From: a virus
Length of the DNA: 55,286 bases
Virus record (IMG/VR): IMGVR_UViG_3300028805_000144
Span: 1-55,286 of that record
Strand: one strand, 5' to 3'
A model generated the notes under the pieces. That model was not told the DNA's origin, did not search any database, and was given only the letters and a program-made list of their open reading frames with translations. Positions 39,912 to 48,620 of this stretch are shown in pieces; the stretch's first letter is position 1; each line of letters starts with the position of its first letter. A program made the translations under genes and the position numbers.

Positions 39912-42900
39912 TCATCTTCTTTTCATTGCTCTTTGTGCAGCAAGATTAACTAAATCATTTAATGCTTCTTCAATTTCTCTCTTGCTATTAACATTCGGGA
40001 ACGATGCTTGAATATTAACATTCTGATCAACAGACTCAGTAGATCTATTATTATTAATATTATTAGAGCCACTATTCAACGAACTAAGTCTTGTAGAAAT
40101 ATTACCGCCAAGGTTATCAACGATACTTCTTAAAATTGCTACGCTGTCAAGCATATTCTTAGTATCATCAGCATTAAGAACAAGCTCTTTTTGATGAAGC
40201 ATAGCAAGACGGCCTTCAGGTCCCCAAGAGCCAGTGTAACCACCAGTGTCAAAACCACTGGTACCAAGACCCCATTTATATTTATCTCTCATTTTATAGA
40301 AATCAAAAATATCTAAATAATAATCTTTAAATTTAGGACCTGGCTCAATAATATGAAAACGACCTAACTCTTTTAATACTTCATCATAAAGTTTTTGAGC
40401 TTTTTTCTTTGTCATTCCTAAACTATTTATAAAGCCATGCTATTCTAATAGTTCTCTATACTGCTCTCCAGGATGATAGAATTCATTCCACGAACCACCA
40501 TAATAAATATTACCTGCGATTCCTTCGGCGGTAGAAACACCATTAGGATTAATTGTTTCTTCCTTTTCTTTACTTGGAGTTTGCTAAGATGAAGTTGCAG
40601 TAGAACTTCCACTTCCTGTTGTCCCACTTCCACTTGATGTAGATGTAGGAATTGAAGCAGGTACCGTAGTAGGCGCAGCAGGTAAAGATTGCGGCTGTTC
40701 CGCAACAGATTGATGTTGGTAAAACCTATTTTCATCTTTTGCAGCTTCTGCCGCTGCAATAGCATTTTGTGCCTATCTATATCTATTAGCTTCATCAACC
40801 GCTGTTTTAGCAGCGTCATATACAGCTTGATATTTCGCAATTAAAGCATCAAGTTCATCTTTAAGATTTCTAATAGCATTAATCATATCATTCTGCATTT
40901 TGCTAATTAATTCATCATTTTGAGTAATTAATCCACTAAATGCTTCTGCTGCATCATCAATGCCATCCTTAAGTTGACCAAAATCTTCATCCGCAACACT
41001 TTGTAAAGTATCTAATTCACGTTCATAATCCTACGTTGCGGCATCCAAATCATTAAATCCTTGCTGGCAAGCTGGAATAAAACCGCCTTCTCCAGCAAAT
41101 GTATTTGCCATTTCTTGAATACCGTTATTCCAAGTAGGAATAAGCTCTCCCATTAATGCTTCTTTTTCACTCTAAATCATAGATTGATAAGCATTATAAT
41201 CACCATCATATAGAGCTGCATAATCTATAAAAGCAGATTCCATTAAATTAGTTCTAATAACTTCATTTTCTGCAACTTTATTATTAATATACTCTCCATA
41301 TTGATCACGAAGCAACGCTAATTGTCTAACTCTCTATTCCTCTGATAATGAAGTATCTAAAACAATTTCTTTATATTTAGATTGAAAATCTCTCCATGCA
41401 GAAAGTATATCATCTAAATTCTTTTGATAAGCATTTTTATCAAAATTATAAAGATCATTCTGCGCTTTAGCTAAAGCCTCTTCTGCATTAGCAATCTATT
41501 CTTGGTTTGCCGCATAAACATAAGAATAATTACCCTGAGAGTCTCTTCTCAACCGCAATGATGTTTTATTCTTCTTTTGATCTTCAAGAGCCAATCTAGC
41601 CTGTTCAATTTGAAGAATCTTTTCAGCTCTATCAACATCATATTGAGTTAATTTATCTTTATCCCTTAAATTCTTTAGTTGCTCATCTAAAACCTTTTGT
41701 AAAGCTCTTTGATTCTTTAAGCTCTTATCATCATTAATAATATTAGTATATTTTAACTGAAGCTATTGAATTGCAAATGCAGAATTAATTTCATCTAAAT
41801 ACTCATTTGCATTTTTATTCATTAACTCCCATTCCATTTCAATATAATCAGTACCTAACCCACCAGTAATACGCTTGTCTAATGTATCAAAGATTTTATT
41901 AATAGCATTAGTATATTTATTTTGTAGTAATTCAACAGACTGAGTAATAGCGGAATTAAGATCTTGAACCGTTTGCATATACTCTTGTTTCCATTTCTAT
42001 GCAAGATTACTTTCACCTCTAGCCACCGCCGCATCCCATTCTTGTTTAGATAAATCACGATATTGTTTTAAGAAATCAATTTGCTTTAATTGATTTTCTT
42101 GTTGCTTACTATAATAGGCGTTCATTGCTTCATACTGTTTATCGCCATAAAGTAACTGTAATAAATCAATATCATGTTCATACAAATCATTTACAAAATC
42201 ATAATCTTCAAGTTGTTTCTGAGCTAAATCACTAACATCATCAACAGTATCAAGAATTGCTTTGTCAACATCTTGAATCAATCCTTCAATACTCTACATT
42301 GAATTCATTAAAGTATCTAAATCACCTTTAAGATGCTACATTGCTTGCGCTTTATCATCACCATATATAGCATCCTTGCCCATCTTATCAATCTAATCAA
42401 TGATATTCATTGTTTCATTTAAAGATTGAGTTAAGGCTTGGATAGAATTAGAGCTAGAAACATCAAAATAAGAATTATAGTCAGCAATAGAGCGGTTAAC
42501 ATCTTTAATTAAAGTTTCAGTGCTAGAATCTCTAAGAACATTATCCGCTTGCTCAACTTCACGTTTAAACTGATTCCAGTCTCTGCGGGCTTCGCCCATA
42601 TCAAGACGAATTTCAAGAGCCATTCTAAAACGCTTGATATTAATTTCAATTTGCTTTTGAGAAATTTCAGTAATCTCATCTGTAAGATCTTCCATATTAT
42701 CTCTCAAAGAATCGAAATTCTTAATCGCAGTTTCAATATCCTTCTGATAATCTTGAGCTTTCTTAAGTTGTCTTTCAGCTTCTGTAATTTGATCTTTTAA
42801 TGCATCTTTGGCTGTTTTTTCAGTTATTGCGTTATATTGTTCAACAAGGCCATTATACGCATCAATTAAGCCATTAACAACACCTTGTTGATGTCCTAAT

Positions 42901-45900: not shown

Positions 45901-48620
45901 TTTTTTTCTTCTTCTATAATAGCATTATTTATCTTAATAGTTTCTTCTCTAGCTTGCTATTGAGCTTGAGTATAAAGACCAAAAGCAGTAACTCCTGCTG
46001 CTAACAAGCCAAGAACTACAGTAATACCACCAGAAGCCACTCCCAATGCTGCTCCCATTGCAGAAGCAGCTGATGTAACTCCCTTAATCCCCATTATCAA
46101 ACTAGGTAATCCATTGGTTAATAAAGAAAGAGCTTTTTGAGAATCTGAAATCTAAGAATTTTTAAAAATGCTGCCCAAGTGTTGAATTTGATTAATAGCA
46201 GCTCCAATTTGGGATAACCCACCAACTATTTTAGTTAATCCTTGAATATATGCCGTCCTTTGGGCATTGTCTGCTTGACTATTAAAAATATCCTCTTTAG
46301 CCTTTTTAGCTTTTTTAGCCTATTCTGTTAAATTAGTTAAACTATTTGCGGCGCCAGCAAAATTCTATTTTAATCTTTCTGCTAACTCATTTCCACTTTC
46401 TCCAGCATTTTTAGTTAAAGCAATAATTTGACTTGCTATTAAATTTAATTTATTAGCAACTTCTTCCGCAGGAACCTTATCATCTAGTGTCGCCAGTTCC
46501 TATCCAAGCCGTTTAACTTGTTCTTGATGAGCTTCTAATTTACCTTCATCAACTAAAGTTTGTAACTATTCTTGATATTCTTCTAATGCAAATTTAGCAA
46601 TTCTTATATTACCAGCAAATTCATCATTAGACAAGTTTGAATTATTTTGAATTAATTTTAAAGCATTTGCATACTGTTCGACAGACTATGACAATGAATT
46701 AAATTCCAAATTTTGTTTTTCAAGCCTTTTTATAACTTCTTCTTGGCCGGCAGAATCCATCATTAAATCTTTTAGCCCTTGCCATTTATCAGTTGCTTTA
46801 GTTACGGCCTGAACCATTCCATCAAGAATATCCTATTGAGCAGTTAAAGAAGCTACTTTATTTGTTGCCTAAACAACATCATTTAAAGTAGTTTGCATTG
46901 CAGAAAACTGATCTGGAGACATTACACTAGCTAAAGATAACATTTGCTCTCGACTAGCTAACAAATCTCTTTGAGTTTGATCAAGTCCAGGAATACCTTG
47001 CCAAGCTTGAATTTGTTCTAAGGTCATTTCAAATTGTCTTGCGTTTTCTTTAGCAATTTCAAAATTAGTTATAGTTGTATTTATTCCTTTAGCAATTTGT
47101 TCGCTAAATACAGAAACGCCAATAGCACCAAGTGATGTTAATATTGCTCCACCGCCGCCAAGAGAATCTACAAACTGTGCAGCAAATGATAATATATCTG
47201 CCAATGCATCAATCAATGGCTCTAAAGAATCAGGATTCAAGAAAGAATCATATAGATCTTCTGTTGCAGTTTTTAATTGATTTAAATGTGCAGCAGTTGA
47301 CTCTAAATAAATCCCCTGTTGTTGCTCCAAAGTGCCTGCCGCATTTTGAGCAGTAGTTAATGCTTCTGTATATTTATCAAAGTTATCAAATAGCGCAATT
47401 AAGTTAGAATACTGTCTCTGACCAGCCATTATCTGAGCCAAAGACACCTGTTGTTCACGGGTTAAATCTTGCCACTTATATCCAATTTCTTCAATGACCT
47501 AGCCCATGTCACGAAGATTGCCAGTAGCATCAAGAACATTGAATCCAAGCGCAGCCATCTTACCAGAATATCTACCAAGATCAACTTCATCTTCTGCAAT
47601 ACCGGCTTTAATATCACTAATACGAGCATATACCGTTCTTAATGCAGTACCAATACTTTCAGGAGCCTGTCTTGTTACAGAAATAATTGTAGATAACTGA
47701 GCGGCAAGTTGATCTTCTCCGACTCCCATTGCGGCAGCCGCAGCTGCAACCTTACTCATACCCGTTGACAACTATTCAAGGTCGGATGCCGTTGTAGCAG
47801 CAACTGCTGCAAGTCTATCAACATAAAGTTCTGCCTATTCTGCATTAACCTTATAACCATTCCAAACAGAAGTTAACTGTTCAGAAACTTCCGCTGTTGA
47901 TTGCCCAGTGACATTTGCCGTCTTTAAAGTAATTGCAGTACGAGCGGCAATCTCCTCATCACTTAAACCCTGTTGAGCATAAATCAATGCTGCTTTTGTA
48001 TAGTCGGTTGTCGTTCTACCTAAGGTTTGCGCGGCTTGATTTGCTTGAACTGCAAAATTAGCCATCTACTCAGCAGACTTATTAGTAACAATTCTAATAT
48101 CATTTAATGATGTATCTAAATTTTTTACATATCCCCAAGCCTGTTGAATAGATTGAGACATTGTATTAACCGCCGAAGAAGCTAAATTCCATTTTATAGT
48201 ATTACTTAAGGTAGTTGCAATATTATCAAGTAAGCTATGAGTTTCTTTTAATTGAACATTAGTGGTTAATACTTGCGAAGTAAGACTTCTAAAAGCATTT
48301 TCGCCAGCCACTCCACCCTTACTAAATGTTGAATAAATCTGTTCAATAGAAGTATTAGACTTCTATAGTGACTTATTAAAAGTCTCAATATTAACAGTAT
48401 TTAATTTTGCATTAAAGGCAGTTTTTAATGCTTCTTGAACATTAGTCGCCTACCTTTTTATATCATTAAGGGCGGTTATGGCAGATGATCTGTCAGAATC
48501 ATTAATCTTCATTATATCGCTAATAGATAATTTTTGTAGCTATTGCAATGAAGATTTTAACTTATTCAAGTCAGAATGATTTACATCAAAACCAACTTTA
48601 TATTTTATTTCATTCGCCAT
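39912..48620 (-). CDS. tail tape measure protein (~2900 codons, dozens of in-frame TAG)
   Basis: ATG at 48620 with RBS CAAGGAGATAAAAGGAT; twelve ORF-track fragments share one frame; C-terminal TMP motif GGYTGSWGPEGRLAMLHQKELVLNADDT; stop TGA at 39912. Confidence 0.65.

Follow-up and report, generated by a model that had tools for sequence, protein, structure and literature searches.

The question raised by the minus strand of a viral DNA stretch of 55,286 nucleotides (positions 1 to 55,286 of the IMG/VR record IMGVR_UViG_3300028805_000144, the whole of which is called the window below) is whether a reading frame crossed by many TAG codons, running from 48620 down to 39912, encodes a single protein, and which amino acid is inserted at those codons. 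We propose, with a probability of roughly 0.85, that this frame is a single late gene for a phage tail tape measure protein (TMP), whose TAG codons are read as glutamate by a phage suppressor tRNA derived from tRNA-Glu; the code would then not be that of NCBI table 15, in which TAG is glutamine.

The open reading frame and its product

The gene, its start signal and the segments recognised in its product are as follows:

39912..48620, minus strand: tape measure protein gene (frame counts, PF10145, PHROG matches and full-length alignments), product of about 324 kDa
48631..48636, minus strand: Shine-Dalgarno sequence AAGGAG, seen in the sequence with a 10-nt spacer to the ATG at 48620
47424..48041, minus strand: TP901-type TMP core, aa 194-399, Pfam PF10145 (PhageMin_Tail)
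47091..47165, minus strand: hydrophobic Gly-rich segment, aa 486-510 (Kyte-Doolittle scan)
45963..46070, minus strand: hydrophobic segment of double length, aa 851-886 (Kyte-Doolittle maximum 2.02)
42396..43067, minus strand: longest TAG-free stretch, aa 1852-2075, predicted to form long alpha-helices
39915..40259, minus strand: C-terminal module, aa 2788-2902, GFDTGGYTG...H.KE.VLN...KRR

An earlier reading of the letters without database searches (hereafter the sequence-only reading) had proposed one frame of about 2,900 codons, split only by TAG, and retranslation bears this out: the 8,709 nt from 48620 to 39912 comprise 2,902 sense codons and a terminal TGA, with 56 TAG, no TAA and no internal TGA in frame. 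Since 142 and 389 TAA plus TGA codons fall in the two remaining frames of this strand over the same interval, a chance open frame is excluded. When read with table 11 the gene falls into 57 pieces, among which 11 are in-frame open reading frames (ORFs) of at least 60 aa from start to stop, and not twelve as had been counted, the ORF at 40445-40840 of the ORF track lying in a different frame from the TMP. The ATG at 48620, previously described as linked to a ribosome-binding site, is indeed preceded by AAGGAG; upstream of it, the stop-to-stop frame adds only 2 codons (to 48626), and both ends of the protein are kept in orthologues (MAN(E/Q)IKY at the N-terminus, ...KRR at the C-terminus). A frameshift was looked for and none was found: residues 1-2900 align by BLASTP with the orthologue of locus L011 in a single high-scoring segment pair (HSP) of 2,957 columns at 54% identity, and residues 1-2608 with that of L009, again in a single HSP (43% identity), so that neither a frameshift nor a hidden gene boundary is present. 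The L009 gene, of 2,879 codons, is written in the standard code and holds no TAG at all; with the TMP of L004 the collinearity is full-length, at 43% identity.

The 2,902 codons form a genuine phage TMP gene and encode one protein, as the sequence-only reading had held. The PF10145 match (E=8.2e-27, 94.8 bits against a cutoff of 33.2) covers profile positions 1-200 of 201, and 13 PHROG families annotated as tail length tape measure proteins match the N-terminal third (best 1.6e-69), the two best profiles being 2,625 and 2,675 positions long. The signature noted earlier before the terminal TGA belongs to a module common to the C-termini of annotated TMPs; indeed, the last 115 aa are 37-60% identical to the TMP C-termini of VRE9_2, MT835936, L005 and L010, the values for VRE9_2 and for the human-faecal contig MT835936 being 37-42%. 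The composition favours helix throughout the protein, and in the one 224-aa sample modelled (aa 1852-2075) single-sequence AlphaFold2 gives six helices, one of them 73 residues long, with about 88% helix at a mean pLDDT of 67. A linker rich in Ser and Thr lies at about aa 2640-2690; no internal repeats were found in the TMP, and phmmer against the PDB sequences returned no relative.

Length of the protein and of the tail

The sequence-only reading called the protein exceptionally long; the 2,902 codons stand, the exceptional character does not. A search of 5.8 billion proteins with the TMP gave 2,906 matches, and the best 120 cluster representatives among these are all 2,576-3,511 aa long, most of them near 2,850-3,000, many covering 90-100% of the query and lying on contigs of up to about 141 kb. 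With at least 120 homologous database clusters, lengths of about 2,600-3,500 aa are usual for a large lineage of uncultured phages. The TMP annotated in the Enterococcus phages VRE9_1-4, EF1, EF5 and H1 (134-142 kb) has 2,673 aa, and those of the phAss-1 group, which are also recoded, have 3,149-3,209 aa (PMC10607447). In the phAss-1 TMP we counted 110 in-frame TAG.

A tail of about 435 nm (roughly 400-450 nm) would be expected by extrapolation from the ruler rule of 0.15 nm per residue, which was established for lambda and mycobacteriophages. It might be objected that the protein is a TMP homologue whose length does not scale linearly with the tail, only part of it acting as a ruler or the protein being processed, so that the tail would not measure about 435 nm. 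The two hydrophobic segments, the Ser/Thr-rich linker and a globular-looking C-terminal region do not make a plain coiled coil, inteins in some homologues and an intron in one mean that gene length there differs from mature protein length, and in the literature no measured tail length was found, by electron microscopy or otherwise, for any relative, the Enterococcus phages included. On the other side, the length is tightly conserved among the best 120 homologues, which suggests selection on it, the sampled segment is largely helical, and the ruler rule holds widely, as lambda gpH and the mycobacteriophage TMPs attest; a departure from linearity is therefore regarded as rather unlikely, if a real concern.

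The interruptions just mentioned are of two kinds. In L005 (IMGVR_UViG_3300026549_000309) the TMP is interrupted after about aa 226, inside the core motif ALIYAQQG (6336-7800), by a group I intron (Rfam RF00028, 50.6 bits, 7438-7769) which carries an HNH endonuclease ORF (6269-7519); intein/Hint Pfam domains occur in the TMP homologues P0013, P0026, P0027, P0073 and P0081.

Distribution of TAG and codon usage in the window

The TAG-containing genes lie in five blocks, delimited by TAG counts:

4630-5427, plus strand: TAG-containing block
18816-19571, plus strand: TAG-containing block
21026-25607, plus strand: TAG-containing block
29007-32428, plus strand: TAG-containing block
32470-48620, minus strand: TAG-containing block, TMP gene included

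In the recoded genes TAG occurs 152 times in 8,213 codons, versus none in the 4,297 codons of the unrecoded genes, and the 28 assigned genes end in TAA (25) or TGA (3), never in TAG. The TAG-free genes encode a lipoprotein-like protein, a sigma factor, a CCA-adding-type nucleotidyltransferase, an RtcB-like protein, a protein with a major vault protein (MVP) shoulder/SPFH domain, an RNA ligase, a polynucleotide-kinase-like protein and a phosphoesterase. This layout is the plan of early standard and late recoded genes described by Borges et al., and the absence of TAG from the early genes, together with its never being used as a stop, fits a switch driven by the phage for its late genes.

Ordinary codon usage also differs sharply between the two gene sets, of which 32470-48620 (recoded) and 49363-55044 (unrecoded) are examples: CAA/CAG stand at 301/63 in recoded versus 44/106 in unrecoded genes, TTA/CTT at 403/146 versus 55/170, and AAG at 13.5 versus 32.8 per 1000 codons. 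These differences suggest that the two sets rely on different tRNA pools, and it looks as if the late genes were tuned to the phage tRNAs (Gln-UUG, Leu-UAA, Ile-UAU and others) and the early genes to those of the host. In the late tail genes TAG reaches 18.5 per 1000 codons, versus 6.1 for GAG.

Two observations concern the borders of this partition. At 25759-28600 (plus strand) four or five TAG-free genes, belonging to PHROG families of unknown function, stand among recoded tail genes, so that the partition is a mosaic and not two clean halves. A GIY-YIG homing endonuclease gene at 18816-19571 (plus strand; PHROG 314, 5e-35) holds 9 in-frame TAG, and this mobile element has thus taken on the late code of the phage.

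The amino acid inserted at TAG

The sequence-only reading had proposed retranslation with table 15, and the corresponding alternative, in which the same TMP gene is decoded with TAG as Gln by a suppressor of tRNA-Gln type, as in the crAss-like phages, Lak and phAss-1, deserves consideration because no other amber reassignment has been reported in phages (Borges et al. preprint; PMC11210395; PMC10607447); moreover, many database homologues are written with Q at the TAG sites. Many of those entries had been called with table 15, and the DNA of the homologues was therefore used here. The probability of a residue in the relative given the residue in the window was taken from each alignment itself, and the residues opposite TAG were scored under 20 hypotheses, in nats over background.

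For the window, all the tests run favour Glu. Against the standard-code TMP of L009, the 50 TAG sites aligned give +12.4 for Glu and -9.0 for Gln, with E at 18 of the sites and Q at 3; pooling the standard-code TMPs (L009, L003 and VRE9_2; 89 sites) gives Glu +24.9, Asp +8.2 and Gln -8.6, and in two standard-code TMPs no Gln at all stands opposite a window TAG. The relatives of the clade agree (Glu and Gln, respectively: +29.7 and +2.1 at 75 sites in L011, +29.6 and +0.5 at 75 sites in L004, +19.6 and -1.0 at 67 sites in L005), the margin of Glu over Gln being 21 nats with L009, 33 with the pooled standard-code TMPs and 20-29 with the clade relatives. The reverse test, of the relatives' TAG against window residues, again points to Glu, and each recoded TMP of the clade, taken alone against the standard-code TMPs, favours E. 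The residue spectrum opposite TAG closely mirrors that of genuine Glu sites: L009 keeps 44% of the window's real E and 36% of its real Q, and opposite TAG it has E in 36% and Q in 6%.

The codons tell the same story. Glu codons, TAG and Gln codons number 275/0/169 in the TMP gene of L009, 242/16/173 in L010, 206/56/182 in the window and 207/62/188 in L011; across these orthologues TAG trades against GAA/GAG and not against CAA/CAG, the Glu count falling as TAG rises and the Gln count remaining flat. GAA predominates among the codons that stand opposite TAG (15-22 per relative), and CAG, which would be the synonymous neighbour at one transition if TAG were Gln, is almost never found there (0-3 per relative).

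The same conclusion is reached from a second late gene:

32778..33266, minus strand: RuvC-like resolvase, 7 TAG in 162 codons (PHROG 827, 2.6e-16)

Here the window has IM-TAG-E-V where L004 has VM-E-TAG-V, and in the columns where TAG alternates it does so with E in 8 and with Q in 1. Among 120 resolvase homologues, the columns of Glu sites hold only E and Q (e.g. 91/29, 67/53 and 86/34), and two genuine Gln columns are Q in all 120, never E; a dimorphism restricted to Glu sites is as expected from the translation with table 15 of genomes in which TAG is Glu. Among the TMP clusters, 32 of 120 have Q opposite an E of L009 significantly more often than E opposite a Q (p<1e-3), and the controls show no such excess (phAss-1 17/17, L010 25/26, VRE9_2 8/15). 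Decoding of the window's TAG as Gln is accordingly considered very improbable.

As an observation on the public protein collections, the entries P0001-P0120 (TMP) and P0121-P0240 (RuvC-like) are translated with table 15 and carry Q at conserved Glu columns. Some resolvase entries have a precomputed Pfam RuvC match and others lack it, which could be a consequence of that translation.

The suppressor tRNA

Three tRNA genes of the window are relevant to the decoding of TAG:

12386..12458, plus strand: amber suppressor tRNA, anticodon CUA (ARAGORN), tRNA-Glu architecture, CCA not encoded
8083..8156, plus strand: tRNA-Glu(UUC), sharing with the suppressor the acceptor 5' strand GGTCTC and A73
17604..17674, plus strand: tRNA-Gln(UUG), with A1-U72 and G73, unlike the suppressor

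The suppressor lies inside the unrecoded early tRNA region and is, at 66.3 bits, the best-scoring tRNA of the window with the Rfam tRNA model, in whose register it reads GGUCUCA-UA-GUC-AAGCGGCCUAA-GAC-G-UCUGA-CUCUAAA-UCAGA-AGAC-CAGGG-UUCGAAU-CCCUG-UGGGACU-A. It has a G1·U72 pair, A73, an 11-nt D-loop and a 4-nt variable loop (variable-loop lengths being read directly from the tRNA sequences); G1 and the lengths of the two loops resemble those of phage tRNA-Glu genes. The D-arm motif, with the anticodon left free, was searched in 185,579 genomes of bacteria and archaea; among the matches listed 112 tRNAs were callable, of which 110 proved to be tRNA-Glu (79 UUC, 31 CUC) and one tRNA-Gln, almost all the matches listed coming from Bacillota. 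The tRNA-Gln genes of the same bacterial loci have U1 in 24 of 25 cases, G73, a 5-nt variable loop in 20 of 25 and mostly a different D-arm; the suppressor, which lacks U or A at position 1, G73 and the 5-nt loop, is thus not the Gln-type suppressor of code-15 phages, and this counts further against Gln. Judged by its sequence, it appears to be built like a Bacillota tRNA-Glu.

An exact pattern of the suppressor anticodon and T arm had no match in IMG/VR; a looser pattern of D-arm and anticodon retrieved three loci, L006, L007 and L008 (3300021256, 3300021254 and 3300021387), whose suppressors are 74% identical to that of the window and have G1-C72, C73 and an encoded CCA. In these loci the array runs tRNA-Glu(UUC), tRNA-Glu(CUC), tRNA-Sup(CUA), an order which suggests that the suppressor may have arisen by duplication of a tRNA-Glu gene, and the variable loop AGAC of their suppressors is the same as in the neighbouring tRNA-Glu(UUC). 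ARAGORN found no tRNAs in the stretches of the TMP-bearing loci L001-L005.

With introns allowed, ARAGORN also reports in the window a tRNA-Lys(CUU) with a 58-nt insert (7288-7421), a second tRNA-Gln(UUG) with a 67-nt insert (17403-17545) and a tRNA of unclear anticodon (17682-17805), all three matched by the Rfam tRNA model, and a tRNA-Leu(UAA) at 13228-14084 whose 773-nt insert contains an HNH-like ORF (13429-13929, 2 TAG); this last intron was not confirmed by Rfam, and no group I intron was found in it.

Proposed mechanism and its alternatives

According to the mechanism proposed here, the early genes, including those of the suppressor, the tRNA array, the CCA-adding-type enzyme and the sigma factor, would be read in the standard code of the host, and accumulation of the suppressor would then render the late tail genes translatable. 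The suppressor would be a tRNA-Glu derivative whose anticodon differs by one base (CUC to CUA), presumably charged by the host glutamyl-tRNA synthetase (GluRS) and spared transamidation, so that the 56 TAG of the TMP gene would be read as glutamate; in the late tail genes about one Glu codon in four would be TAG, serving as their second Glu codon, which would tie their expression to the code switch. Many Bacillota lack a glutaminyl-tRNA synthetase (GlnRS) and possess a non-discriminating GluRS which, being tolerant at anticodon position 36, charges tRNA-Gln with Glu, and conversion by GatCAB is confined to tRNAs that combine a U1-A72-type pair with a short D-loop; against this background a CUA tRNA shaped like tRNA-Glu would be expected to be charged with Glu and left as such. 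We infer the charging, the escape from GatCAB and the timing of expression from the sequences. Full translation of the gene relies wholly on read-through of 56 TAG, in agreement with the heavy dependence on amber suppression predicted by the sequence-only reading, and near-complete suppression is required over so many successive events: at 0.99 per codon 57% of the chains would be completed, at 0.95 only 6%.

A number of points weigh against this proposal. All the evidence is computational and the assignment of Glu is statistical. Bacterial GluRS normally reads anticodon position 36, and its tolerance of A36 is assumed by analogy with the non-discriminating enzymes; no aminoacyl-tRNA synthetase, release factor or function directed against release factor 1 (RF1) that would account for the escape of 56 read-throughs from RF1 was found in the window. 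The median identity of the suppressor is 0.68 to the Glu set versus 0.64 to the Gln set, a modest gap which becomes small when the D-arm, holder of most of the signal, is removed, and the bacterial tRNA-Glu reference set was itself selected by that D-arm. The code is not uniform in the wider group, since L010 (16 TAG sites, 34 aligned site-subject pairs; Q +10.7 versus E +4.0 nats) and the phAss-1 TMP (Q ahead of E by 9 nats, both below background) lean weakly to Gln, as the alternative with Gln would have it. Finally, no recognisable tail tube, sheath or chaperone-frameshift genes lie beside the TMP gene, the morphology and the tail length thus being extrapolated.

It may also be asked whether TAG is ambiguous, read sometimes as Glu and sometimes as Gln (after incomplete transamidation, for instance), or as some other acidic or related residue. 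The second place of Asp in the pooled standard-code test, the weak G1·U72 pair of the suppressor and the possibility, in principle, that a Glu-charged suppressor is partly converted by GatCAB speak for this view; the same pooled test places E above D by about 17 nats and above Q by about 33, and a spectrum opposite TAG so close to that of genuine Glu sites makes it very improbable. The notion that there is no gene product, the region being a decayed pseudogene or a row of small standard-code ORFs, as the 57 pieces of the table 11 reading with their 11 longer ORFs might suggest, is rejected on the frame statistics (no TAA or TGA in 2,902 codons), on the end-to-end homology, which includes a TAG-free orthologue, on the same pattern in at least 10 other genes and on the presence of the suppressor, and deserves practically no credence.

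Neighbouring genes

The features around the TMP gene, and one gene that may serve the suppressor, are the following:

39885..39913, minus strand: terminator-like hairpin with an 11-13 bp stem and a T-run, overlapping the TMP stop codon
35446..39801, minus strand: 1,451-aa protein with 29 TAG, downstream of the TMP, which it adjoins in relatives too
33644..35434, minus strand: 596-aa repeat-rich protein with 8 TAG, considered for its position
48850..49131, minus strand: ORF of 93 aa on the upstream side of the TMP gene, conserved in L011
14101..15135, plus strand: tRNA nucleotidyltransferase-like gene, unrecoded (PHROG 388, 1.7e-54)

The 1,451-aa protein is presumed to be a distal-tail or tip protein and the 596-aa one, from its position only, a fibre or receptor-binding protein; neither has a Pfam or PHROG match, both genes are syntenic in relatives, and in VRE9_2 a gene annotated as 'tail protein' occupies the corresponding place. 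The hairpin at the TMP stop codon and a promoter-like, near-consensus extended -10 site (TTGACA-17-TG-TAGAAT, 39830-39858, minus strand) just upstream of the 1,451-aa gene hint at separate transcription units for the TMP and for the tail genes downstream of it; a sigma-70 scan around the TMP gave 56 sites versus 50±7 in shuffled sequence, which is not above expectation, and no promoter is claimed. Upstream of the TMP gene two small ORFs (93 and 61 aa) have no match to a chaperone family, a slippery site not having been searched for. Since none of the genes for tail tube, sheath, portal, capsid and terminase falls within the window, the morphology is judged from the TMP type only; the phage is probably large, about 130-140 kb, siphovirus-like and with a Bacillota host.

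The nucleotidyltransferase-like protein could, to judge from its family, add CCA to the suppressor. It belongs to a kit for tRNA maintenance and repair written in the standard code (14101-15135, 19562-20680 and 52367-55044), which comprises the CCA-adding-type nucleotidyltransferase, an RtcB-like protein, an RNA ligase, a polynucleotide-kinase-like P-loop protein and a phosphoesterase, and to which relatives add Thg1; such a kit may shield a code switch dependent on tRNA from host anticodon nucleases. Divergent from the TMP gene, an 823-aa protein with an MVP-shoulder/SPFH domain (PF11978, 1e-18) is encoded at 49363-51834 (plus strand) with no TAG, in the same position as in L010 and L011; its antisense strand (49336-51834) holds open frames of nearly full length with junk-like translations.

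Novelty and implications

A literature search for a phage in which TAG is reassigned to Glu found no report. The recodings observed by Borges et al. (preprint) are TAG to Gln and TGA to Trp only, and later tool and survey papers (prodigal-gv, Pharokka-gv) use table 15, with TAG as Gln. A long recoded TMP belongs to a published kind, that of the phAss-1 group; the new point is the amino-acid assignment. We consider it likely that a widespread lineage of gut phages of Bacillota, with genomes of about 130-140 kb, reads TAG as Glu in its late genes, with TAA and TGA as stops, a code undescribed in a virus or bacterium and installed in mid-infection by a tRNA-Glu-derived suppressor; that its phAss-1-type relatives read TAG as Gln with a suppressor derived from tRNA-Gln; and that public databases systematically mistranslate its proteins.

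If so, TAG to Glu would be a third type of phage recoding, host GluRS would be open to co-option besides GlnRS or TrpRS, and a natural Glu-inserting amber suppressor would be gained. Thousands of database proteins would carry wrong residues, Q being written for E at about 2% of positions, catalytic acidic sites included, among them the catalytic-looking EE motif of the resolvase. Within one broad phage group TAG would have been captured twice, by Glu and by Gln, and these two meanings would allow the evolution of codon capture to be tested directly.

Comparison with known systems

The closest described system is phAss-1 and the proposed genus Phassvirus (OQ749652, BK046881, BK025033), human-gut phages of about 133-138 kb (Babkin et al. 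2023, PMC10607447). Like the window, phAss-1 (locus L002, TMP at 5246-14713) has late and structural genes interrupted by TAG, its own tRNA-Sup(CUA) genes and a very long recoded TMP, 30% identical to that of the window at the N-terminus and 46% at the C-terminus. It differs in that its TAG is reported as Gln (PMC10607447), whereas the window has Glu-like TAG sites and a Glu-type suppressor. Indeed, the acceptor stem of the first phAss-1 suppressor (AGCGGGU/ACCCGCU-G) is that of the window's tRNA-Gln(UUG) and unlike that of the window's suppressor; a Gln-type stem is consistent with its authors' call and is in keeping with decoding as Gln in that phage. The three proposed Phassvirus species share 80.4-86.4% nucleotide identity (PMC10607447); megablast of 35000-55286 against GenBank phages gave no match, and with distant protein similarity only, membership in Phassvirus is rejected.

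The homologous, very long TMP places the window in the wider group of 100-146 kb Bacillota phages related to phAss-1 and EF1, a placement which rests on the TMP, the large terminase subunit (TerL), the major capsid protein (MCP) and the polymerase lying outside the window; contigs carrying TMP relatives reach 124-141 kb. The Enterococcus phages VRE9_1-4, EF1, EF5 and H1 (PHROG 34405), with a Bacillota host, are the nearest cultured relatives found in the phage collection; their TMPs are collinear with that of the window in the N-terminal, middle and C-terminal regions at 21-37% identity, but they use the standard code and are far more distant in sequence. End-to-end orthologues of the same length class, at 40-54% identity, are found in ENA, Logan and IMG/VR (L011, L004, L005, L009 and P0001-P0120), with synteny extending to the divergent MVP-shoulder gene, the RNA ligase, kinase and phosphoesterase genes, the downstream protein of 1.4 kaa and RuvC; since 40-54% is the best identity reached, the window represents a lineage absent from the collections at the species level. 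L011, L004 and L005 share its Glu signal at TAG, L009 is TAG-free and in the standard code, and L010 (a 134.7-kb contig, TMP at 10001-18616) has only 16 TAG.

The reassignment of a stop codon to glutamate has a parallel in the nuclear code of peritrich ciliates (NCBI table 30), in which both TAA and TAG encode Glu. That code is eukaryotic and nuclear and reassigns TAA too; it is rejected for the window, where TAA is the usual stop and never occurs in frame in the TMP. The code-15 phages (crAss-like, Lak and others) resemble the window in their standard early genes, in the in-frame TAG confined to a late subset of genes and in the possession of a phage tRNA(CUA) as suppressor. They differ from it in their hosts, mostly Bacteroidota, and in the amino acid, which is Gln instead of Glu; proteomics has confirmed Gln in two of the crAss-like phages (Borges et al.; Peters et al. 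2022, PMC9523058). The match of TAG positions to Gln in homologues that marks their code is replaced in the window by a match to Glu.

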